Assembly: GCA_022711395.1 (NCBI GenBank)
Contig: JAKLFA010000002.1
Coordinates: forward strand, 387,864-451,863
Reading direction: 5' to 3'
DNA from: Candidatus Omnitrophota bacterium
GTDB lineage: Bacteria; Omnitrophota; Gorgyraeia; Zapsychrales; JANLHA01
Length of the DNA stretch: 64,000 nt
This document shows positions 10,051-53,725 of this stretch, piece by piece. The notes under the pieces are model-generated. The model was not told where the DNA came from and did no database searches. It saw nothing but the letters and a program-made list of their open reading frames with translations. The translations under genes were made by a program, and so were the position numbers. Every line of letters starts with the position of its first letter. Position 1 is the first letter of the stretch.

Positions 10051-10800
10051 CTACTTTCCGCTATTAAGAAGCCGCTCGACTTTCTCAATAAGGATATCCA
10101 CACCTTCCGCTTTATCAAAATACTCGTCCGCTCCCGGGATCAGAGACCGCTGGTCCTCTGCGGGAAAGACGCTGGACACGATGACCTTGACCGGAGTATT
10201 CCTTCCCTTGATACCTTCATAGACCTTCATGCCGATCCTTCCTGGGAGCGCGATATCAAGGATCACAAGTCCGATATCAGGTTCTTTGGCGAACAATTCG
10301 AGGCCCAATTCTCCGTCCTCGGCTTCCAACGTGCGATACCCGAGGTCTTCCAGTTGTCCGCTGAACAGCCTCCGGATCTTGAACTCATCCTCAACGATCA
10401 AGATCGTGCTTAACGGCAATATGCCTCGCGCCGCTTTTTTGACCTTTTCCAGCAGGACATCGACCCCTTGCGCCTTATCGTAATAATCAAAGGCGTCCTT
10501 CATGATCCGCCTCTGTTCTTCAACAGGATAAACGCTTGTGACAATGACCTTGATGCTCTTGCTAAAGGCCCGTATCAGATCGAACAAAATGCTCCCATAA
10601 ACCCGCGGAAGGTTGATGTCCAGCAAAATGATATCGAAATGTTTTCTGAGCAGAATTTCACTGGCCTCTACAGCGTCGGGAACGCTTACCACTTGATACC
10701 CTTCGCTCTCAAGCAATTCCGCATGCAGTTTCCGGATCTTGTCCTCATCTTCAACTATCAGGATCCTCAGCATTCGAAATCTCCCGTGTGTACTGCCCAA
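10051..10800 (-). CDS. dual-receiver response regulator (two tandem CheY-like domains, no output domain)
   Basis: 249 aa. Two LIVEDE...ILDI..LP receiver units. Confidence 0.8.
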   Translation of the reverse strand: MGSTHGRFRMLRILIVEDEDKIRKLHAELLESEGYQVVSVPDAVEASEILLRKHFDIILLDINLPRVYGSILFDLIRAFSKSIKVIVTSVYPVEEQRRIMKDAFDYYDKAQGVDVLLEKVKKAARGILPLSTILIVEDEFKIRRLFSGQLEDLGYRTLEAEDGELGLELFAKEPDIGLVILDIALPGRIGMKVYEGIKGRNTPVKVIVSSVFPAEDQRSLIPGADEYFDKAEGVDILIEKVERLLNSGK

Positions 10801-17327: not shown

Positions 17328-17400
17328 CTCCCCCGCGAGGACTCGAACCTCGGACATAGTGGTTAACAGCCACTCGCTCTACCGACTGAGCTACAGGGGA
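17328..17400 (-). tRNA. tRNA-Asn (anticodon GTT)
   Basis: Minus-strand read TCCCCTGTAGCTCAGTCGGTAGAGCGAGTGGCTGTTAACCACT...GGTTCGAGTCCTCGCGGGGGAG. Standard D and T arms. Anticodon loop CTGTTAA. U1-A72 as in E. coli tRNA-Asn. Confidence 0.85.
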
Positions 17401-25958: not shown

Positions 25959-27095
25959 CTAGAATTGAATGCCTGTTTTAAGGCCAAATTCCCAGGTCCG
26001 GTTGTTCGGCTCAAGCCCGCACATGTCAACCGTGCAGCCGGCGTTGGAATCCTTAATATGCCAATACCGGGTGAACGGTTCCACAACAAAATTCACGACC
26101 GGCGTTTCCTTAATGACCTTGATCGAACCCCGGTAGCCGTAACCTTCATTTTGGTCATTCTCCAGGGTCTCGCTATAGCCCGGGACATCCCCCAGATGGC
26201 TCCGCTGCTGCCCATCAACAAAAATGTCATACTCAAGATTAAAGACCGTCTTCCATCCCGCCTCAAAGGTGCGTTCAATATCGATCCCAAGCGGAATATA
26301 GACATACTGGGATTCCCGGTCATAGCTCCAATGGCCGGTCGTTGTCCGCTGTCCGCCGTTATCATCTTTCAAATAACGATACCCCAGCCCGGCGTAGGGC
26401 GTGAGCGTGATGTTCTTTCCCGACAAGGGATAATCCGCCCCGACGACCAGGCGCGTTTCATGCGCGAAATGCGTTTCATCCTCTTTCTCGCCGCTTCCTT
26501 CCGAACGGTATTTGATATCGCTCCCGCGGCTGTAGCGGCTGTCCAGGCGCAAAACGTTCAACCTTTCCACCCCGGAGAAGATCTCACCCAGCGAATTGAC
26601 CGGTTCATTCTCATGGAAACGGTGCGTGTAAACCCCGTAGACACCGATCATCGAACCATCCAGTTTCATGAAGCCCTCTTCCCGATATGTGTAATCAAAG
26701 ATCTCGGCCCCGACCTCGGCGCTATTAAGGGGGTTCTCCTTAAAATTCAAATACTGATAAGAAAAATTCTCCTTCGGGAGTCCCGCCGGCGCCGCAAAAG
26801 ACGCCGGTTCTTCATTGGAGGGCGCAGCCATCTCAGCCGGATCAGGCTCGACAGCCTGATCATCAGAACGGACAACGATCGGGTCGACTTTTACCTTGAC
26901 CGATGGCCTCCTCGCTTCCGGCGCGGCCGTGTCAAGCGCGCAAATATCCCGCTGATTGATCGCTCCCTCATCATAAAGCCTCTGAAAACAATCCAGGTTT
27001 TGCGCGATAACACCCTGGCGGTCTGAAGCCCCGGACGCTGAGGCGCCTATCAAGCACATGCCTAAAACGGCAAGAAGAGAAAAAATTTTTTTCAT
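25959..27095 (-). CDS. putative outer-membrane beta-barrel protein (paralog A)
   Basis: 378 aa. Signal peptide and C-terminal Phe. Alternating amphipathic strands. Shares a conserved approximately 250-aa C-terminal region with the next gene (TPYAGLGYRYLKDDNGGQRTTTGHWSYDRESQY...). Confidence 0.5.
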   Translation of the reverse strand: MKKIFSLLAVLGMCLIGASASGASDRQGVIAQNLDCFQRLYDEGAINQRDICALDTAAPEARRPSVKVKVDPIVVRSDDQAVEPDPAEMAAPSNEEPASFAAPAGLPKENFSYQYLNFKENPLNSAEVGAEIFDYTYREEGFMKLDGSMIGVYGVYTHRFHENEPVNSLGEIFSGVERLNVLRLDSRYSRGSDIKYRSEGSGEKEDETHFAHETRLVVGADYPLSGKNITLTPYAGLGYRYLKDDNGGQRTTTGHWSYDRESQYVYIPLGIDIERTFEAGWKTVFNLEYDIFVDGQQRSHLGDVPGYSETLENDQNEGYGYRGSIKVIKETPVVNFVVEPFTRYWHIKDSNAGCTVDMCGLEPNNRTWEFGLKTGIQF

Positions 27096-27107
27096 GAAAT
27101 TCCCCTT

Positions 27108-28280
27108 TTAAAAATTAACGCCCATTCGCAGACCGTATTCTTCGGTCCGGTTATTCGGCTCGATCCCGCAGGTCTCATCAGAGCATCCGACATGGGACGG
27201 TTCAATGTGCCAGTAGCGCACGAACGGTTCCAGGAACAAATCCATCATTTCCGCCTGCCTGGAAAGCTTCAAAGACGTTCGGGCCCCGTAACCGCTGGGC
27301 TGGTGATTGGACAGCGTTTGCGTGTAGACACCATCAGGATCGTCCTCAAAATGGCTCTTCTGCTGGCCGGTCATGAACCAGTCGTATTCCGCGTTCCATT
27401 TGAGCCTCCATCGCTCAGAAAGCGGCCGCGCCAGATCAAAACCGATCGGCACATAATAATATTGCGATTCACGGTCATACGCCCAATGCCCCGTGGTGCT
27501 GCGCTTGCCACCGTTATCATCCAGAAGGTAACGATAGCCGACACCGATATACGGGGTCACGGTAAATCCATTCTTTAAATAATAATCGTAGCCGGCCATG
27601 GTCCGGACTTCATAGCTGTAATGTTTCTCATCAAAAGCGTCCCCCGTGCCTTCGGAGCGGTAATGCCCGTCCCACATGCCGCTCACGCGCGCGTCCACCT
27701 TGAACATCGTCGGATGAATCACGGTCTTGCCCATCTCTTCCATGGATGTGACCTGATAAGGCTTGCGGAAACGGTGCTCGTATTCACTGCGCAGACCATA
27801 CATCGTCCCGTCAATCTTCATGAACCCTTCCTCACGGTAGCTGTAATCAAAGGCTTCGAACCCGATATCAAGCGAATTGTTGGGGTCTTTCAGATCAAAG
27901 AACTGCTGGGCGATGGTCTTTTTCGGGTCCCGGATCGGCGCGTCTTCTCCAGGCTGTGAAAACTCCGGATCTGAAATGCGCGCCACCGTAACGGCTTGAG
28001 GCTGAGCGGAAACAACTGGATCCGGAGCTGTTTCACGGATACTGGAATGAACGTCGCTCAAGGCTTCAACAGGCTCAACAGCAACGGCCGGCAAAGACGT
28101 CTCTTTTTGTTCATAAGCATCAAGGGCCTGTCCAACGACCTCTTTGCGCGGCTGATAGGTCTCGTAGCGGCTGGTCACGTAAGACGGACGGGACGCGGCT
28201 GAAGCGTTCATCGCCTCAGGGAAAAAAACGCAGAGAAAAAGCGTTCCAGCGCAAATTTTAAGAGATATCGAAATCTTCAT
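27108..28280 (-). CDS. putative outer-membrane beta-barrel protein (paralog B)
   Basis: 390 aa. Same architecture and conserved blocks as paralog A. Ends GLRMGVNF. Confidence 0.5.
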   Translation of the reverse strand: MKISISLKICAGTLFLCVFFPEAMNASAASRPSYVTSRYETYQPRKEVVGQALDAYEQKETSLPAVAVEPVEALSDVHSSIRETAPDPVVSAQPQAVTVARISDPEFSQPGEDAPIRDPKKTIAQQFFDLKDPNNSLDIGFEAFDYSYREEGFMKIDGTMYGLRSEYEHRFRKPYQVTSMEEMGKTVIHPTMFKVDARVSGMWDGHYRSEGTGDAFDEKHYSYEVRTMAGYDYYLKNGFTVTPYIGVGYRYLLDDNGGKRSTTGHWAYDRESQYYYVPIGFDLARPLSERWRLKWNAEYDWFMTGQQKSHFEDDPDGVYTQTLSNHQPSGYGARTSLKLSRQAEMMDLFLEPFVRYWHIEPSHVGCSDETCGIEPNNRTEEYGLRMGVNF

Positions 28281-28364
28281 GTGTGTTTAAATAATATATA
28301 TTTTTATTTTAGGGGGTTACGAATAACGTGGCAATGAAAAAAACGTTTTTTGTTCCGTCTGTTT

Positions 28365-30008
28365 TTAACGGTCTTTCTTTTGCTCCCGCTGAAACCGCCG
28401 CTCCATCTCATCGACCTTTTTCTTCAGCTCCATGATCCGCTCTTCCCGCCCGATGCTCGCTTTAAAAAAGATCTCAAGTTCATGCAGGTGCTTTTTCGTT
28501 TCGTTCTCTGTTTTCGTTCGTAATTCAACCTCCTGGCGAAGCTGCTGCTCATTGGCAACCAGCTGCTGATTGATCGCTGTCAACTGCTGCTGGCTCGCCC
28601 GCAACTGCTGATTGGCCGCCTGAAGCTGCTGCTCACTGGCCTGGAGCTGCTGATTGGCCGCCATCAATTCCGACGTCCGGCTCTGGACCATCCGCTCCAG
28701 TTCCTCTTTCCATCCGCTCATCCGCTCCAGCATCGCGTTGAACTGCCGTCCTAAAAACCCGATCTCATCTTTTGAAAACTCGCTGATCCTCGCCGAAAGG
28801 TCCCCCGCCTGAGCGCGCCGGGCGACCTCCGCCATCCTTTTGATCGGGCGCACCAATGAGGAGGACAATAAATAAATCGCGATCATCCCCAGCAGCATGC
28901 CCAAAAACGTCACCCCTAAAGAATAAAAAAGATTCTCCCGGACAGGCCAAAAGACGTCATCAAAATTCTCCTTGACCACCATCCCGATCGACTCTTTATA
29001 CGAGATCGGGATGTTCCGATACGCGGCCAGAACTTTGACGCCGCGGTAATCCCTGCCCTCCAAAACCCCCTCTTCTCCGCTGGCCGCGCGCCGGGCCGGT
29101 TCTGCATTGATCGTGTATCCCAGGGGGACCGGCTTTGTCCCATCTTTGAGCGGAAACTTCAGCGGTGTTAAAATTCGCTGATCCTGGTTGACCAGAACAA
29201 CCTCTCCGCTCCGGCCCAGTCCCTTGGCCGCGTTCAGCATCGGTGACAAAAACGACCCTAAATTCACATAGGTCACCAAAAGCAGCTCGTCTTCCTTAGC
29301 CGGTTCATCACCCCGCGCGCCTTCACCCGTCACGGGGGCCGCCAGCAAAAAATCCCCGGCCCCTCCGATCAAATCGCACTGCCGGATCGTGACAAAAACG
29401 CCACCCTCCGTCAGATCGATCGAATTCAGCCGCGCATCAAGGATCTTTTTACCGTAATCCTCATCGTGCGGCGGGACAACAGCAAAGCCCGTGGAATTGT
29501 CAACGACCGTGAACCGGTGAAAGACATTGCCATACACTTGCTGGGCCTGATGCAAAAAGTTCCTCGACTCCTTATACGACGGTTCCTGGCTCAGCGCCTG
29601 CCAAAGCTCTTCTCCGCTTTTGCCTTGTTTCCGATACTCCTTCCGTAAACGGCTCAATTCCTGGAGGTTCTCTCTCAACAACTGGTTAGCGGCAATCGCC
29701 TTAACATCATATTTCCGCTCCAGAAGCCACGCCGTAATGTTGTCCTTCTGCAGATCCGCGATCACGGAAAAATTATCCAGCGTGTTTTTCTTGAGCACGT
29801 ATTGAACGCCTTCGAATCCCACAAAAGGGATCCCGTAAAGGCGCGCCCATTCCAAGGACATCGATCCTGCCAAAAAAAGAAGCCCGAACAGCGTTATCAT
29901 TTTTAAGCGCAAACCGAAGAATTTATCTCTATCCATGACTCCGTCCCCCTTTATAAAGCAATGCTTCTGTGCGGTCTCCTTCAGCGCAATAAACAGACCC
30001 GTCCTCAA
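28365..30008 (-). CDS. Cache-like periplasmic sensor / HAMP / coiled-coil protein without kinase or MCP signalling domain
   Basis: Two transmembrane helices flank an approximately 300-aa periplasmic region. HAMP (VRPIKRMAEVARRAQAGDLSARISEF...). Five tandem heptads follow: NQQLQAS/EQQLQAA/NQQLRAS/QQQLTAI/NQQLVAN. The true start is probably an internal Met near 29930-29960, because the ORF overlaps cheD. Confidence 0.6.
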   Translation of the reverse strand: MRTGLFIALKETAQKHCFIKGDGVMDRDKFFGLRLKMITLFGLLFLAGSMSLEWARLYGIPFVGFEGVQYVLKKNTLDNFSVIADLQKDNITAWLLERKYDVKAIAANQLLRENLQELSRLRKEYRKQGKSGEELWQALSQEPSYKESRNFLHQAQQVYGNVFHRFTVVDNSTGFAVVPPHDEDYGKKILDARLNSIDLTEGGVFVTIRQCDLIGGAGDFLLAAPVTGEGARGDEPAKEDELLLVTYVNLGSFLSPMLNAAKGLGRSGEVVLVNQDQRILTPLKFPLKDGTKPVPLGYTINAEPARRAASGEEGVLEGRDYRGVKVLAAYRNIPISYKESIGMVVKENFDDVFWPVRENLFYSLGVTFLGMLLGMIAIYLLSSSLVRPIKRMAEVARRAQAGDLSARISEFSKDEIGFLGRQFNAMLERMSGWKEELERMVQSRTSELMAANQQLQASEQQLQAANQQLRASQQQLTAINQQLVANEQQLRQEVELRTKTENETKKHLHELEIFFKASIGREERIMELKKKVDEMERRFQREQKKDR

Positions 30009-30459
30009 TATTCAGCCAGGCGCTGCGCCGGATCACGCCCCCCACGGCCGTCTCCATGACCCTGATCCCTTCTTGCTTGAGGATCTCCGTGACCGAATCG
30101 ATGAGAGCGCGGCACAAGGTGTCATTTTCATCCTTGAGGACATTTCCCCCTCCGATAAGGCAGGCGGTCATATCCTCCGCGACAGAACCTAAACGCTTCA
30201 TTTTAAAAAGCAGGTCATCGATGGCGTCTTGCGCGTATTTCCGGTTCGGCATGAACCCGCGGTTCGCCGACTTGCCCGGAAGCATGATGTGCCCCAATCC
30301 GCCGATCATCCGCTTAGGGTCATGGGCGGCCACAACGACGCATGATCCGATTCCGTCCGAGCGCAGGATCACTTTTTGGGACGTGACCCAGACCTCTCCC
30401 GTGGCCACGGGAATCACCGCTTTCCTCCCTGCCGAAAATTGTCCGCGGTTCCCGATCAT
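29929..30459 (-). CDS. cheD: chemoreceptor glutamine deamidase CheD
   Basis: 176 aa. GIGSCVVVAAHD...GLGHIMLP matches the CheD catalytic Cys and His region. Confidence 0.8.
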   Translation of the reverse strand: MIGNRGQFSAGRKAVIPVATGEVWVTSQKVILRSDGIGSCVVVAAHDPKRMIGGLGHIMLPGKSANRGFMPNRKYAQDAIDDLLFKMKRLGSVAEDMTACLIGGGNVLKDENDTLCRALIDSVTEILKQEGIRVMETAVGGVIRRSAWLNIEDGSVYCAEGDRTEALLYKGGRSHG

Positions 30460-30649
30460 GCCCTCACGATCCTCTTAAAAAACGATTTTCTAATGGTGAT
30501 ACTTTTACTATACGCATTTGAGTATTAGCAAACAAGAAATTTTCTTAAAAAGTCAGCAAAAGGGCCATAGAACCATGCGGAAGAAAAATAAAAAATTTCG
30601 CCCCTTTACAATCGCAAATTCAGCGTATAAACTTTAAAAAGAAAGGAAC

Positions 30650-30976
30650 TTGACCATGATCCACATTTACTTATCGAAACGCAATCTGATCATTCTATTA
30701 ATGATTGTTGTGATCGCCTGCGCCGCACCGGTGATCGCGCAGTACTGCGTGCAGGACCCCACCGCTGGCATGGGGCCTCACAGCCTGCACGGGACATGCA
30801 AGATCAATCTTTACACCGGGGCCTGTTCGCTAGGATTTTCAGCCACCCCGGCTTTCTGCGCCACCGCGACAACATGCGGATGCGAGGCGGGCTACACGCC
30901 CCTCCTCTATCGCGAGCATGACAATCCCGCGAACACCACCGTCAACGCGCAATTCTGGACCTGCATGAAGAACTAA
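30650..30976 (+). CDS. small secreted cysteine-rich protein (paralog 1)
   Basis: 106-108 aa. Signal peptide (LLMIVVIACAAPVIAQY) and 8 Cys. C-terminal CMKN. A hairpin terminator follows. Confidence 0.6.
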   Translation: MTMIHIYLSKRNLIILLMIVVIACAAPVIAQYCVQDPTAGMGPHSLHGTCKINLYTGACSLGFSATPAFCATATTCGCEAGYTPLLYREHDNPANTTVNAQFWTCMKN

Positions 30977-31131
30977 ACTGCCTGGGCCCAGTTGCTCAAT
31001 GTTTTATCAAAATGGGATCTCAAACAAAACCCGTCTTTTTTCTAAAATAAGGCCATTGAACCAATAAAAATAAAAACGCCCTTTACATTCCACAGGACAG
31101 CCGATAAACTTTTAAAAATGGAGACGTCAGC

Positions 31132-31470
31132 ATGATTCAAATCAATCTTTCACAGCGCGACATCATCGTCTTATTGGCCATTATAATGATCATTTGCGCT
31201 GCCCCTGTGATCGCCCAATACTGCATCCAGGATCTTTCGGCACTGCCAGAAGGAAGTCAATTGCCGTATTCATTGGCTGGTTACTGCAAACAAACTCTTA
31301 TCGCCGATGGGGAGACTACCGTAGGATGCTCCGGCAGTTTTCCCGCGACGTGTTCACCTTGCGGCTGCACAAGCGGCTACACACTGGTGAGAACCGGTTC
31401 ACATTTTGTCCCAAACTCGCCCACAACACAACTCAGCGCCAAATTTTTTTCCTGCATGAAAAACCCGTGA
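31132..31470 (+). CDS. small secreted cysteine-rich protein (paralog 2)
   Basis: 112 aa. Same signal peptide, Cys spacing and C-terminal CMKNP. The upstream promoter region is conserved with paralog 1 (CGCCCTTTACA...GATAAACTTTAAAAA). Confidence 0.6.
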   Translation: MIQINLSQRDIIVLLAIIMIICAAPVIAQYCIQDLSALPEGSQLPYSLAGYCKQTLIADGETTVGCSGSFPATCSPCGCTSGYTLVRTGSHFVPNSPTTQLSAKFFSCMKNP

Positions 31471-31590
31471 CCCGGTTAAGAAAAAATCATTCAGAAAATT
31501 AAAACGTTTCAAAATAAAAACCCCTTTCACTGAACCTGAAAGGGGTTTTTATTTGTAAAAAAGCCCCTGTAAAAGGGGCTTGAAATTAAA

Positions 31591-34002: not shown

Positions 34003-35412
34003 TCAATGGACGAAGCGCTGGCGCCGTTCATCCAGATATTCTTTCCCAAGCAGTTCCTCACGGCTGAGGCCAAGGCCCGCGACCGCCTTGTCCGGATCAC
34101 GGCTAAAGGCCCGGCAAAACAGCGTTACTTCCCGAAGGGTCGTCAAATTGCGGTTGGCAAGCTCTTTGAGGAGCATCGCCCGCAACTGGACCTCCAGGAT
34201 AAGGTCTTTGGGAAGGAGCCCCGATTGCTGGGAGAGCTTATCACGGTAAACCGTGCTGGTAGACATCTGACGGATCTCGTTGGATTCATAATCATATTTA
34301 TAGATCTGCGAAAGGAGCACCTTCTCCTGCTCCATGCCGCTGGTCTCGCTGATCTCATCCACGATACGGGTCACCCTGCCTCCGACGTGATAACGCTTTA
34401 GGACCACAAAGACATCGATCAGCCGCACAAGCTCCTTTGGGATATTCATGGGCTGGTTCTGAAGGCGCATGATCGCCTCCCGGGACGTGAGCGCGTGGAT
34501 CGTGCCGATGCAATATTTCCCGATGTTGGCCGCCGTGATCATGTCCCCCGCCTCAGCGCCCCGGACCTCACCGATCACGATCCGTTCAGGCCGCATGCGC
34601 AAGCTGTTCTTGACCAGGTCCGCCAGTGAAAAATCCTCCCCGCTCTCCAGTCGGGAGCAGCTGGAAACAAATTCCGTGTTCAATTCCAGAGTGTCTTCGA
34701 TCACCACCAGACGGTCAGTGTCGGGAATAAAACTGAAAAGCGCGTTCAAAAGGGTCGTCTTTCCAACACCCGGCCCCCCGGCAATGATCATGTTCGCCGG
34801 GCGGATCGACATTCCTTCCAGATACAGCCAAAGCTGGGCCGCGACCTCATAGGTCATCCCGCCCCGCTTGATCAGGTCCAGGACACTCAAAGGCGACGCC
34901 TTGGCCTTGGTGATCGTGATCTGGGGGCCGAACGGCGATTTGATAATATTGACACGGCCGTCAAGATTGGGAAGCTCGATATTCATGATATTTTCGAACC
35001 GCGTGCGTCCTGAAAACAAGATCAGCTTCTTGATAAAAAGGTCCAGCTCTTCTTTGGATTTGAATTGGCGGTCAACGCAGACCAGGCCTTTTTCCGAATG
35101 ATGGATATAGATCGGGTTGAGCGCGTTAATGATCACGTCTTCCACGTTGATGTCGCTTAAAAGCTCCTGCAAAAGCCCATAAGAAAGGAAATTCTGAATG
35201 AACAGGTTGCGGGTATGCTCATTGTCCAGCTCTTCCATCTCCTTCTTGAACCGGGTCTTGTTGCCTTCAAGAAAGAATTCCTTTAAACCCTCCTGGACGA
35301 TTTCGATCTTCTCGTCATGCCGTTGCAGGAGATGGAAACGGCCATAGAGCTTCTCGACCAAAGCGGTCTGCAGATCAATGGATTGTTTTGTTTCTGAAGG
35401 TAAAGAGTTCAT
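34003..35412 (-). CDS. type II/IV secretion-system family ATPase (CpaF/TadA/FlaI-like), orphan
   Basis: 469 aa. Walker A GGPGVGKTT. Asp box and Walker B (VIEDTLEL). His box (RIVIGEVRGAE). No other secretion or pilus genes are nearby. Confidence 0.75.
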   Translation of the reverse strand: MNSLPSETKQSIDLQTALVEKLYGRFHLLQRHDEKIEIVQEGLKEFFLEGNKTRFKKEMEELDNEHTRNLFIQNFLSYGLLQELLSDINVEDVIINALNPIYIHHSEKGLVCVDRQFKSKEELDLFIKKLILFSGRTRFENIMNIELPNLDGRVNIIKSPFGPQITITKAKASPLSVLDLIKRGGMTYEVAAQLWLYLEGMSIRPANMIIAGGPGVGKTTLLNALFSFIPDTDRLVVIEDTLELNTEFVSSCSRLESGEDFSLADLVKNSLRMRPERIVIGEVRGAEAGDMITAANIGKYCIGTIHALTSREAIMRLQNQPMNIPKELVRLIDVFVVLKRYHVGGRVTRIVDEISETSGMEQEKVLLSQIYKYDYESNEIRQMSTSTVYRDKLSQQSGLLPKDLILEVQLRAMLLKELANRNLTTLREVTLFCRAFSRDPDKAVAGLGLSREELLGKEYLDERRQRFVH

Positions 35413-35471
35413 AATGTTAAATTACTGTATCACTAAAGATAGCAGCTGTAAATATTTATGACAAATCTCTT

Positions 35472-38129
35472 TCAGGGTTGCGGCTGCGACTTCGGCAATC
35501 CGATCAGCGTCAACAGCCGTTGATCCCCCAGATAGGTTTGGGCAAGGCTCTGAACATCCTCCGCGGTGACCGAATTGATCCTCTCTTCATAACGTTTATA
35601 CGAATCCCAGCCCAGGCCATAGAGCTCGTCTAACGCTGTCATAAATGAAAACCCGGAATCCGTCTCTTTCGTCCGCCGGAAACTTCCGATCAAATAGGCC
35701 TTTGTGCTTTGAAGAAGGTCCGCATCGACCGGCTGTTCTCGCAATTCCCTGATCAGCCCGTGCAAAGCGGCCTTGACTTCCTGCGCGCGGTCAGGAGAGG
35801 TCAAAACATGGAACAAAACATAACCCGTATCCCGTAACGGCTGAAATCCCCCTCCCAAACGATACGAAGCGCCCATCTGTTCCCGGATCACATTAAAGAT
35901 CCTGCCCCGAAAAGGCGATCCCAGGATCGCCGCCAGGATTTCCATCGCATAACGGTCCTCGTGATAAAAACCGACCGCCTGCGCACCGACCAGAACGACG
36001 GCCTGTTCTTTCTCAAAATATTCGCTTATCTCTCTTGCCTCGACCGGGGCAGGCGAGGATGAACGGATATCGACCTCCTGCCTGGCCATAGACCCGAAAA
36101 GAGACGTTACGTGTTTTAAAACAGCTTCACGGTCGAAATTTCCAAATACCGCCAGGACAGCGCTATTCGGTTTCACGTAAGACCGGTAATAGGCCAGCAC
36201 ATCCTCCCTGGAAAGGGCTTCCACGCTCTCATGGGTCCCCAGCTCGGTCAAGCGGGCGGGATGCCCCGCGAAAAGCTTTTCTAAAAACAGCCGCCGTGCC
36301 GCCCGCGGCAGGTCATCGTCACGCGCCGAGATCGATGTGTGGATACGCTGCCGGCTTTTACGGACCTCCTCGTCCGGGAACACTGGGCCCAAAACAACCT
36401 CTGCCAGAAGTTCCAGTCCCAGACGGATATCTTTATCCATCATGGACATGGAGAGACCAATACTGTTGCGCCCGGCAAATGCGCTTAGGGAGATCGCCTC
36501 CTTTTCCAAAAGCGCGTGAAGCCTCTCGGCCGAAAAACGCCGGGTCCCCTGCGTCCAGACATCGGCGAACAGGTTGGAGATCCCGTTGTTGCGCTCATCT
36601 TCCTGTCCGACTCCAGCGTTAAAAACAAACACCGCCTGCACGAACGGCAGCGTGGGATTCTGCCGCAACAGCACGGTCATCCCGTTGTCCAAACGCACGG
36701 CATCGACCGCGTCCTTATCAAAATTCAACGAATCGGGCCCCGGCCCGGAGGGCTCCTGCGTCTGCGGGGTCAACGCCGTTACCGTTAAACTCTCATCCAC
36801 CAGGTAGCGCCGGGCCGCCTGCTGGATCTCTTTTACGGTCAGGCGGTCAAAAGCCTTCACATACCTCAACGAAAAGGAGCTGTCACCGAACAACCCCTCG
36901 CTCACCGCCAAGTCATGCGCCAATGAGGAGGATGTTTCCTGGCGCTGCCAATAATCTTTCCAGACCGCTTTCTTGGCCTTCAAAAGCTCCTCTTTGCTGA
37001 TCCCTGAACGCTGGATCGCACGGACCTGTTTCAGGACCTCTTCCCGGACCCGATCAAGGGGCACATCCATGAACGACACTTCGATCTCAAAGACCCCGTC
37101 GCCCACCGGTGTAAAATTGGAAGCGGAAACGGACTGGACCAGTGACTGCCGCTGCACAAGTTCCCGATAAAGCCGGGAACTGGCCCCCTGTCCGAGGACC
37201 ATCGCCAACGCGTCCAACGCTGCCATATCATCATGAAAAACATTCACCCCTCGGTAGGCAAGGCTCATGCGGGTCAAAGGCGTGGGATATCCCTCGGAAT
37301 AAAAACGGGACCCCTTCTGGACCGGCTCCTGGGGAAAGTCTCTCAAAGAGACCGGCGTGCGTTCAAATTTCTCGAATGCCGCTCTGGCCAGGGGGACCAC
37401 CTCGTCTTTTTTGACCCCGCCGGCCACCACCAGCACGATATTGTTGGGAGCGTAAAATTTCTTGTAATGCTGTCTCATCTGCTGCGCGGTCAATGAACGC
37501 AGAAGCGGTTCATAGCCGATGATCGGGACCTTGTAGGGATGGACACGATAGACATTCGAAAAGGTCATCTCGCTCAAATACCGGTCAGGCGAATCTTTAT
37601 ACATCTTCAGTTCGCTCAGAACGACCTCCTTCTCCCGGTCGAACTCCCCCTCATCGATGACAGCGTTCATCAGCATGTCCGCAAGGATATCCAGCCCCTT
37701 TGAAAAACTGACGGCGGGGACCGTGATCGTGTAGATGGTGTAATCAAGCCCCGTTGAAGCGTTGATCACCCCGCCCAGCGACTGGATCTCATCGGGGATA
37801 TCCCCGGGCTTTCGCGTCAACGTCCCTTTAAAGATCATGTGCTCAAGGAAATGGGACAATCCCGTGCCTAAAAATGGTCCCTCCATGGTCGAACCAACAT
37901 CCACAAAACCATAGACCGAGACCATGTCGCTGGCCGGCATCTCGGCCACAATAAGCCTCATTCCATTTTCAAAAAGGATCTTTTCTGGTCGAACGGGTTC
38001 GATCGAAACCGCATCGCCCGTGGCAAAAAACAGAAGGCAGACGGCGACCGCCCCTGCCAAGAAAAAACGCAAACTTATGGAAAGGTTATTTTTTCTTCCG
38101 GAAATCATTGAGTAATTTCTGGATATCAT
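35472..38129 (-). CDS. secreted tandem M16 (pitrilysin/insulinase) family zinc peptidase
   Basis: 885 aa. Signal peptide. HFLEHM inverted zinc motif in the first half. Second inactive-type M16 half. Confidence 0.8.
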   Translation of the reverse strand: MISRNYSMISGRKNNLSISLRFFLAGAVAVCLLFFATGDAVSIEPVRPEKILFENGMRLIVAEMPASDMVSVYGFVDVGSTMEGPFLGTGLSHFLEHMIFKGTLTRKPGDIPDEIQSLGGVINASTGLDYTIYTITVPAVSFSKGLDILADMLMNAVIDEGEFDREKEVVLSELKMYKDSPDRYLSEMTFSNVYRVHPYKVPIIGYEPLLRSLTAQQMRQHYKKFYAPNNIVLVVAGGVKKDEVVPLARAAFEKFERTPVSLRDFPQEPVQKGSRFYSEGYPTPLTRMSLAYRGVNVFHDDMAALDALAMVLGQGASSRLYRELVQRQSLVQSVSASNFTPVGDGVFEIEVSFMDVPLDRVREEVLKQVRAIQRSGISKEELLKAKKAVWKDYWQRQETSSSLAHDLAVSEGLFGDSSFSLRYVKAFDRLTVKEIQQAARRYLVDESLTVTALTPQTQEPSGPGPDSLNFDKDAVDAVRLDNGMTVLLRQNPTLPFVQAVFVFNAGVGQEDERNNGISNLFADVWTQGTRRFSAERLHALLEKEAISLSAFAGRNSIGLSMSMMDKDIRLGLELLAEVVLGPVFPDEEVRKSRQRIHTSISARDDDLPRAARRLFLEKLFAGHPARLTELGTHESVEALSREDVLAYYRSYVKPNSAVLAVFGNFDREAVLKHVTSLFGSMARQEVDIRSSSPAPVEAREISEYFEKEQAVVLVGAQAVGFYHEDRYAMEILAAILGSPFRGRIFNVIREQMGASYRLGGGFQPLRDTGYVLFHVLTSPDRAQEVKAALHGLIRELREQPVDADLLQSTKAYLIGSFRRTKETDSGFSFMTALDELYGLGWDSYKRYEERINSVTAEDVQSLAQTYLGDQRLLTLIGLPKSQPQP

Positions 38130-52465: not shown

Positions 52466-52741
52466 TTATTCAATATTGGACGAAATCAACCTTCCTCGCT
52501 TATCAAAATTAAACCGAAAAGTCTTGTCATCCTGGCGGTTGCGATAGACCCAGGATTCCCCGGAATCCGCTTCCACAATTTCATCCGGTTTTCCCCAATC
52601 AAATTTAACACGGGTTTGTGACGCTCCGGAGACCATGTATTGGCTGGTTTTCTGATAATCCGAAAACATCCGGCCTCCACCTGGAATAAGCCCGCAACTC
52701 ACTAGACAAAAACAACAAAAAATTAGTAACAGAATACGCAT
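52466..52741 (-). CDS. small lipoprotein (candidate orphan immunity protein)
   Basis: 91 aa. Lipobox LVSC. Low-GC gene. Confidence 0.5.
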   Translation of the reverse strand: MRILLLIFCCFCLVSCGLIPGGGRMFSDYQKTSQYMVSGASQTRVKFDWGKPDEIVEADSGESWVYRNRQDDKTFRFNFDKRGRLISSNIE

Positions 52742-52810
52742 ATCAAACCTCCCCGGCTAATGTATGGAACACTCTCAAACAAAACTTTCTCGATAACAAC
52801 TCCAGAAAAC

Positions 52811-53161
52811 CTAAAAAACATTTACTGCTTGAACGACTCCATCCTGAATATAGAACCAAACAGCTTTGGCAGGTTCTGAATGGAATTCTTTGTAAACGCC
52901 TTTAGAAAAATTATAATACCAGGACTCTTCATACTGTTCGCCATGAATCCAAGCATCAGGATCAATTGATCGTGGCTCTCCGAGATTAACCAATAAATGA
53001 TTTTTCGACTTCCCAACATATTCTTTCTCATAGGAATTACGGGCATCTTCAATCGCATTCAACCAATCCTGTTGATTCTGCATGTGATGCGACAAAACCC
53101 CGCACCCCGTCAAAACAAAACTGAAAAGCACCAAATAAAGCATTAAGACACATATTTTCAT
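52811..53161 (-). CDS. small lipoprotein (candidate orphan immunity protein, paralog)
   Basis: 116 aa. Lipobox LTGC. Shares a LGxP...E.WYY...GV core with its neighbours. Low GC. Confidence 0.5.
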   Translation of the reverse strand: MKICVLMLYLVLFSFVLTGCGVLSHHMQNQQDWLNAIEDARNSYEKEYVGKSKNHLLVNLGEPRSIDPDAWIHGEQYEESWYYNFSKGVYKEFHSEPAKAVWFYIQDGVVQAVNVF

Positions 53162-53223
53162 TGAGCACCCTTGTCAAAATGGATATCTATGGCTTTTTAT
53201 CCCTAAGGGGAGAGAATTCCGGG

Positions 53224-53311
53224 GACACGTACCTAATTCCTTCAATTCCGGGCGAATTCCGGGGACACGTACCTAATTCCTTCAATTCCGGGGGAATTCC
53301 GCTAATAGACA
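53224..53311. repeat. 2.2 tandem copies of a 40-bp unit gaattccggggacacgtacctaattccttcaattccggg (right copy)
   Basis: Direct tandem repeat. In inverted orientation relative to the array at 52328-52385. Confidence 0.65.
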
Positions 53312-53350
53312 AATTAAATTTTCTAATACGGCCAGAATGATCTTTATAAA

Positions 53351-53725
53351 CTATAGAAACAAAACATCTTCAATTACGCCCTGGTTAAGATAAAAAACAT
53401 ACGCCCAAGAATTTTGGTTTAGCAATGGAATCCCTCTGGAATTGTAATAATACCATTCTTCTTCATAAAGCTTCCCGCCACGATAAACATTTTTTTTGAT
53501 CTCCGTTGGCTGGCCCAAATCCCGCAATAGCGCCGCGGAATCTTTGCCTATATAGCCTCTCAACAATTCATCGACTTTCTGTCTGGCCTCTGCATCACGC
53601 GTGCCGTCATGCGAATCTCGTAAAAGCGCCGCGCGCAAAAAATTTTGTTCAGCAGCACAACCCCACACAAAAACCAGGATCATAAAAATTAATAATTCGA
53701 TTTTTCTGTTCTGAGAATCCAACAT
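53351..53725 (-). CDS. small lipoprotein immediately downstream of the RHS toxin gene (candidate cognate immunity protein)
   Basis: 124 aa. Signal and lipobox (VWGC). GQPTEI...EEEWYYYN...GVIEDV core shared with the two downstream paralogs. Confidence 0.5.
   Translation of the reverse strand: MLDSQNRKIELLIFMILVFVWGCAAEQNFLRAALLRDSHDGTRDAEARQKVDELLRGYIGKDSAALLRDLGQPTEIKKNVYRGGKLYEEEWYYYNSRGIPLLNQNSWAYVFYLNQGVIEDVLFL

Follow-up and report, generated by a model that had tools for sequence, protein, structure and literature searches.

Small disulfide-rich proteins are frequent among toxins. Class II bacteriocins of the enterocin P type, for instance, are made by Gram-positive monoderm producers and are accompanied by an adjacent immunity gene. 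Other small exported proteins belong to the cell envelope: Lpp is a small abundant lipoprotein, and OmcA is a canonical lipoprotein. OmcA (Pfam Chlam_OMP3) belongs to the disulfide cross-linked chlamydial outer membrane complex (PMC6752827). The cysteine-rich YTV proteins have been recovered from cell-wall preparations and are reported only in Planctomycetales (PMC8567305). Hardly any members of the Omnitrophota have been cultured, and little is understood about their envelope and lifestyle.

The two Omnitrophota proteins reported here, A and B, resemble each of these systems in part. Like OmcA, they are small, carry an export leader and many cysteines, and may reside in the envelope and form intermolecular disulfides. 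However, they share no sequence similarity with OmcA and lack a canonical lipobox, and cross-linking is only proposed for A and B. The YTV proteins are likewise cysteine-rich and lineage-restricted, and A and B also carry an invariant Y-T motif, but YTV proteins are repeat proteins whereas A and B are single small domains. Membership of either family was rejected, because neither Chlam_OMP3 nor a YTV model was among the matches of a Pfam scan at E ≤ 10. With Sec-dependent class II bacteriocins such as enterocin P, A and B have in common their small size, an ordinary Sec signal peptide and probable disulfides; they differ in that their host is diderm and that neither an immunity gene nor homology was found. 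Finally, a short C-x-C stretch in A resembles part of the TSP1/EGF-like modules (PF23308). This match, the best in Pfam, covers 18 residues and occurs in A only, with no match in B; its score of 20.9 bits stays below the cut-off of 27. A Foldseek search with the B model shows no related fold. We therefore treat it as a chance similarity of cysteine-rich sequences.

A and B are encoded in a stretch of 64,000 nucleotides from a Candidatus Omnitrophota bacterium, referred to below as the window. In our best explanation, to which we assign a probability of about 0.6, they are Sec-exported, cleaved, disulfide-held beta-sheet proteins of the periplasm or envelope with a structural or protective role. 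Such a role appears the most likely one, and it is also the least secure part of this package, because it is drawn from promoter features and analogy only. The features of the locus are as follows.

30563–30575, plus strand: copy of the GGCCATTGAACCA block before gene A
30583–30599, plus strand: A-rich tract upstream of the −35 element of A, read from the sequence
30605–30633, plus strand: promoter-like site of A, sigma-70-type, TTTACA-17-TAAACT, from a promoter scan
30656–30976, plus strand: gene A (also P0002), encoding a 106-aa precursor, in a reading frame open from 30650
30656–30739, plus strand: predicted signal peptide of A
30740–30973, plus strand: predicted mature A, 78 aa, 8.3 kDa, pI 6.3, seven cysteines
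31051–31063, plus strand: GGCCATTGAACCA block before gene B, of doubtful significance
31082–31110, plus strand: promoter-like site of B, sigma-70-type, TTTACA-17-TAAACT, from a promoter scan
31132–31470, plus strand: gene B (also P0001), encoding a 112-aa precursor
31132–31215, plus strand: predicted signal peptide of B
31216–31467, plus strand: predicted mature B, 84 aa, 8.8 kDa, pI 6.7, seven cysteines
31512–31554, plus strand: predicted intrinsic terminator after B, about −23 kcal/mol, z = −3.8

The two genes are adjacent and lie head to tail on the plus strand. Their products are 46% identical over the full length (BLASTP, E 4e-29), and tblastn found no further paralogs in the 64-kb window. 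An AAGGA Shine-Dalgarno sequence lies 8 nt upstream of the ATG at 30656, which was also picked as the start of A by gene callers (P0002, 106 aa). The TTG at 30650 was rejected as a start, because it is not in frame with the ATG in the close relative L013. The initial annotation had described adjacent paralogs of about 108 and 112 residues, with eight cysteines in the same spacing, a common CAAPVIAQYC core and a C-terminal CMKN. The pair, the length of B and both shared motifs hold (the proteins end in CMKN or CMKNP), and the description as small exported cysteine-rich paralogs agrees with the Sec-type leaders, the 46% identity and the seven mature cysteines. By contrast, A is 106 residues long when read from the ATG, and the cysteine spacing is alignable but not identical, with indels between Cys2 and Cys5. 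The supposed eighth cysteine, Cys22, lies in the signal-peptide core and is absent from both relatives in contig L001, so that the mature count is seven.

The family occupies a site between cheD and tRNA-Ser(gct)/tadA that is syntenic in three related Omnitrophota lineages, with two, one and two copies. In the window organism A is followed by B, each with a promoter of its own. Positions 30460–31590 are 100% identical in ten contigs (L002–L011) from different JGI and ENA metagenomes; this identity carries no information on population variation and suggests a near-clonal population spread over the sampled reactors. A close relative (CheD 89% identical) has an A-type copy only (L012, 803–1120; L013, 3416–3733), and its two alleles are one nucleotide apart, a difference that changes the seventh cysteine to tyrosine (C57Y). 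In the more distant relative L001 (CheD 66%), a B-type gene (P0003) is followed after 53 nt by an A-like gene, D (10390–10764, 124 aa, nine mature cysteines). Gene D has no recognisable promoter or Shine-Dalgarno sequence of its own, and it is missing from protein databases since gene calling passed it over. Identity between the A-type and D copies is 50%, compared with 58–93% for the neighbouring genes. In Omnitrophota further removed (L014, L016 and L018), the cheD-HAMP pair is present but no such small genes lie nearby. Thus, copy number, order and operon structure vary inside a narrow clade. Between A and its L013 orthologue there are 25 synonymous and nine non-synonymous differences (dN/dS 0.085, dS 0.45), and B compared with its P0003 orthologue gives a dN/dS of 0.16. 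Values of 0.08–0.16 indicate that the proteins are under purifying selection, and by this measure A and B are real, selected genes.

We searched widely for relatives outside the family. A two-sequence profile run against 5.8 billion proteins returned P0001–P0003 only, as did a six-sequence profile at E ≤ 1 against the same number, and 1.84 billion cluster representatives, searched exhaustively with an HMM, added nothing beyond the family. No match above threshold was obtained for A or B in Pfam, NCBIfam, PADLOC or PHROGs, and the best hit of a sequence search of the PDB had an E-value of 1.3. Protein-pattern scans of genome and metagenome contigs gave no confirmed relative, in collections evidently without the source contigs. 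A degenerate DNA pattern for PV(I/V)AQYC(V/I)QD had no matches among metagenome, genome and viral contigs, a result of little weight since the source contigs are evidently absent there as well. In the databases the family proteins are labelled 'hypothetical protein, Candidatus Omnitrophota bacterium'. The earlier claim of 'no known family' is strongly borne out by the profile, HMM, family and fold searches, and homology to a characterised periplasmic family, which had been named as a counter-test, was not found by sequence or fold. By these searches, A and B are an orphan family limited to three closely related lineages.

The leaders were judged by rules that require a basic n-region, an h-region of about 10–18 hydrophobic residues, a helix breaker near −4 to −6, small or neutral amino acids at −3 and −1, and a residue other than Pro at +1, and those of both A and B conform to a Sec leader cut by signal peptidase I. 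The n-region carries K8/R9, and the hydrophobic core spans 15–18 residues. The N-terminal Kyte-Doolittle maximum over 15 residues is 2.9–3.1 in the four copies analysed, and the value for A and B, about 3.1, is the top N-terminal value among the open reading frames of the window. Pro at −4, Val at −3, Ala at −1 and Gln at +1 are found in all six family sequences, and V-I-A before Q agrees with the −3/−1 rule for signal peptidase I. The enzyme is thus predicted to cut after VIA and to leave a mature N-terminus of Gln-Tyr-Cys. The surrounding block, AAPV(I/V)AQYC(V/I)QD, is kept as protein while synonymous differences between copies affect three to eight of its 12 codons, which shows selection on the peptide and not gene conversion. 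An ordinary signal peptide would rarely be conserved this strictly over its predicted cleavage site, and this is the main unexplained feature of the family. The block might act as a dedicated signal for sorting or processing, or it might belong to a membrane anchor that is never cleaved.

The window encodes autotransporter-like beta-barrel outer-membrane proteins and canonical lipoproteins, which indicates that the host is diderm. Sec export would therefore bring A and B to the periplasm only, and we infer a periplasmic or envelope location. Two lipoprotein assignments were rejected. VIAC in A fits a lipobox at Cys22, but this residue is Ala or Val in the L001 copies; since it is not conserved, it is neither a structural cysteine nor that of a lipobox. 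In front of the invariant Cys31 stands A-Q-Y, against the rule [LVI][ASTVI][GAS]C, while the lipoprotein boxes of the window itself read LVSC, LTGC and VWGC. A Flp/Tad pilin was also considered and rejected, because there is no Pfam (Flp_Fap) match and no G/xxxxEY motif, and the hydrophobic stretch comes before AQYC, not after it.

Mature A and B have seven aligned cysteines, and six of these occur without exception throughout the six family sequences. A tyrosine replaces the seventh (Cys57 in A, Cys66 in B) in L013, and copy D has two additional cysteines. A C-G/A-C motif, His88, Asp34 and the Y-T motif (GYT/SYT) are also invariant. The other exported proteins of the window have mature cysteine counts of 2, 2, 2, 4, 2, 0, 0, 0 and 4. 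Under a criterion attributed to Dutton et al. in 2008, a bias to even counts is reportedly typical of organisms that make periplasmic disulfides, and the mostly even counts here make disulfides plausible in A and B. A and B themselves stand out in the window, with 7% cysteine and an odd number, whereas the other exported proteins are cysteine-poor. No DsbA, DsbB or VKOR was noticed among the open reading frames of the window, a minority of which were compared with protein-family libraries. We infer that the six invariant cysteines form three intramolecular disulfides in a small beta-sheet fold.

AF2 runs with a three-sequence alignment gave, for mature B, a model of four antiparallel strands with a disordered N-terminal 18 residues (pLDDT 68.7, pTM 0.56), while the model of A was too poor for use (pLDDT 53). 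Foldseek searches with the B model yielded no convincing match in the PDB (best E 0.37, TM 0.37) or in BFVD (best E 0.11); since these matches are weak, B is given no fold. The weak model of A and the moderate model of B count against the predicted beta-sheet fold. The odd number of cysteines, unlike the counts of most exported proteins of the window, counts against the three-disulfide model.

Each gene is preceded by the same promoter-like site, which the initial annotation had recognised as a conserved −35/−10-like block. In its extended form, CCTTTACA-N16-ATAAACTTT, the block has two exact matches in the 64-kb window, only at A and B, against 0.05 expected by chance, and two matches arose in none of 100 shuffles. 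The promoter of A is near-identical in L013 despite the gene dS of 0.45, which indicates constraint on the block, and the −35 element and the A-tract are still recognisable in the more distant L001. The A-rich tract at 30583–30599 is possibly an UP-element-like sequence, and a comparable tract precedes the −35 element of B and of the L001 and L013 orthologues. Promoters with such A-tracts suggest high expression. The GGCCATTGAACCA block has two exact copies, matches with up to two mismatches are no commoner than in shuffled sequence, and it is not conserved in L013 or L001. The GGCCATWGAACCA block before both genes was tried as an operator and dropped, because it is not conserved in L013 or L001 and its near-matches are not enriched.

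A strong hairpin had been described after each gene; this holds for B and fails for A. The terminator after B has a G+C-rich stem between an A-run and a T-run and, with these flanks, can act in both directions; beyond it, a second hairpin serves the convergent tRNA-Ser gene. After A there is no strong hairpin: the stretch folds at −6.6 kcal/mol (z = +0.89), a value equalled or bettered by 160 of 200 shuffles. With the sole strong terminator located after B, transcription of A probably runs on into B, which also has its own promoter. Rfam matched the tRNA only, apart from sub-threshold matches at the terminator hairpins.

Upstream of A lies a divergent operon (25959–30459, minus strand) that encodes CheD, a dCache-like/HAMP protein and two paralogous autotransporter-barrel-like outer-membrane proteins of 378 and 390 aa. 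In the HAMP protein the only detectable part of the C-terminus is a Q-rich heptad coiled coil (NQQLQAS...), and no MCP-signal, kinase or other output domain was detected. The pair of CheD and HAMP protein is also kept in the more distant Omnitrophota L014 and L016. Downstream of B follow tRNA-Ser, tadA, a PAS histidine kinase, tRNA-Arg, a Tad/FlaI-type ATPase and an M16 peptidase. The ATPase most resembles the archaellum ATPase FlaI in NCBIfam (E 1.9e-58), below the family cut-off. A neighbouring exporter or modification enzyme had been suggested as a check; in all three lineages no exporter, immunity gene or modification enzyme adjoins the genes, whose neighbours are cheD and the HAMP sensor on the upstream side and tRNA-Ser, tadA and a PAS histidine kinase on the downstream side. 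The synteny is common to close relatives only and thus offers no evidence on functional linkage.

We then propose a model for the synthesis and fate of A and B. The two near-identical sigma-70-type promoters would start transcription, and the single strong terminator after B would end the transcripts. A classical Sec signal peptide would direct the export of each precursor, and signal peptidase I would cut after AAPV(I/V)A to release a protein of 78–84 residues that begins with Gln-Tyr-Cys. The mature protein may fold as a small antiparallel beta-sheet, stabilised by three disulfides between the six invariant cysteines, while the seventh, dispensable cysteine would be free or open to an intermolecular bond. 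In the diderm cell, A and B would be retained in the periplasm or envelope, barring export by another system, and they may serve there as abundant structural or protective proteins.

Several other readings have to be weighed against this model. The odd seventh cysteine hints at intermolecular cross-linking, and it is tempting to speculate that it links A and B into a heterodimer or a lattice of envelope proteins. Four of the six family sequences have seven mature cysteines and copy D has nine, again an odd number, where the other proteins of the window are mostly even; only the seventh cysteine varies (C57Y), as expected of a residue outside the intramolecular set. The promoters look strong and carry A-tracts, two diverged paralogs are retained in two genomes, and other bacterial phyla provide analogous systems (PMC6752827; PMC8567305). 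On the other hand, neither the OmcA nor the YTV Pfam models match even at E ≤ 10, the existence of a single-copy lineage means that a heterodimer is not obligatory, and C57Y is perhaps a sequencing error or a rare deleterious allele. Overall, we regard cross-linking as unlikely. The more far-reaching version, in which a new Omnitrophota-specific envelope family forms a disulfide heterodimer or lattice through the seventh cysteine as an independent counterpart of the cross-linked envelopes of Chlamydia and Planctomycetales, seems to us a little less likely again. An atypical lipoprotein, with AQYC as a non-canonical lipobox and Cys31 as the lipid-modified N-terminus, would account for the strict conservation of V(I/V)AQYC(V/I)QD as well as for the odd counts, as six cysteines (eight in D) would be left after subtraction of one from seven or nine, and small abundant examples are familiar in Lpp and OmcA (for OmcA, PMC6752827). 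This is very unlikely given that Tyr at −1 and Gln at −2 break the lipobox rule, that the three small lipoprotein candidates of the window have canonical boxes, and that a leader of 30 residues is long for the class.

The initial annotation had compared A and B to secreted signalling or bacteriocin-like peptides. In such a reading, a toxin, bacteriocin, effector or signal would cross the outer membrane after Sec export and act on other cells, which would suit a possibly host-dependent or predatory lifestyle of Omnitrophota. The family is lineage-specific and diverges fairly fast compared with its neighbours, its copy number and order vary among close relatives at a site adjoining a tRNA gene, and small disulfide-rich proteins are common among toxins; two autotransporter-barrel-like proteins are encoded in the divergent operon, and the Tad/FlaI-type ATPase lies 2.5 kb downstream. 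However, an adjoining immunity gene, a dedicated exporter and a modification enzyme are all missing, and the neighbours are conserved housekeeping or sensor genes whose synteny reflects close relatedness only. A class II bacteriocin or microcin locus was accordingly rejected, as there is no GG leader, no adjoining ABC exporter with a C39 peptidase and no immunity gene. The leader is of the ordinary Sec/signal peptidase I type, which reaches only the periplasm in a diderm cell. The dN/dS values show purifying selection with no arms-race signature, PADLOC and PHROGs gave no match, and a folded beta-sheet protein of 78–84 aa with three probable disulfides is not peptide-like. The chance of a toxin, effector or signal is therefore slim; the bacteriocin or signal reading is unsupported rather than refuted, and a diffusible molecule of this kind is less likely than a structural or protective protein of the envelope or periplasm. 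A last alternative is that the cysteines stay reduced in a strict anaerobe and bind metal in the periplasm, together with the CxC motif, His88 and Asp34, for scavenging or detoxification in a sulfidic digester. The C-G/A-C motif and the His and Asp are all invariant, and the host apparently comes from anaerobic-digester metagenomes, in our reading of the sample records. We consider metal binding highly improbable, because no metal-binding family of Pfam or NCBIfam matches, the even-cysteine bias of the other exported proteins argues for paired periplasmic cysteines, and no metal transporter or regulator adjoins A and B.

Among the exported proteins of the window, which otherwise contain almost no cysteine, A and B alone are cysteine-rich. 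With its signs of strong expression, the family may reasonably be considered for a role as envelope component or host-interaction factor. It is also one of many lineage-specific families of hypothetical exported proteins in metagenome-assembled genomes, which are common in uncultured phyla, and no new mechanism was discovered with it. Its value lies in being a well-delimited target: six sequences are available, the promoters are mapped, a processing site is predicted, and the cysteines comprise six invariant ones and a variable one. If A and B do form a disulfide cross-linked envelope layer, the family would be of greater interest.

Several further features of the window were observed. A 98-aa open reading frame at 62506–62802 (minus strand) encodes a signal peptide followed by three mature cysteines, two of them in a CxC motif, with no NCBIfam match and no similarity to A or B. 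At 34003–38129 (minus strand), the Tad/FlaI-type secretion ATPase stands alone beside an 885-aa double M16 peptidase. The segment 48066–61663 (minus strand) encodes two very large proteins (1340 and 2643 aa) that are almost devoid of cysteine and begin with a signal or anchor sequence; three small canonical lipoprotein genes (52466–53725) lie between them. Six tRNA genes, all on the minus strand, are spread among protein-coding genes at 17328–44797, and four of the six are tRNA-Ser isoacceptors (gct, gga, cga and tga).
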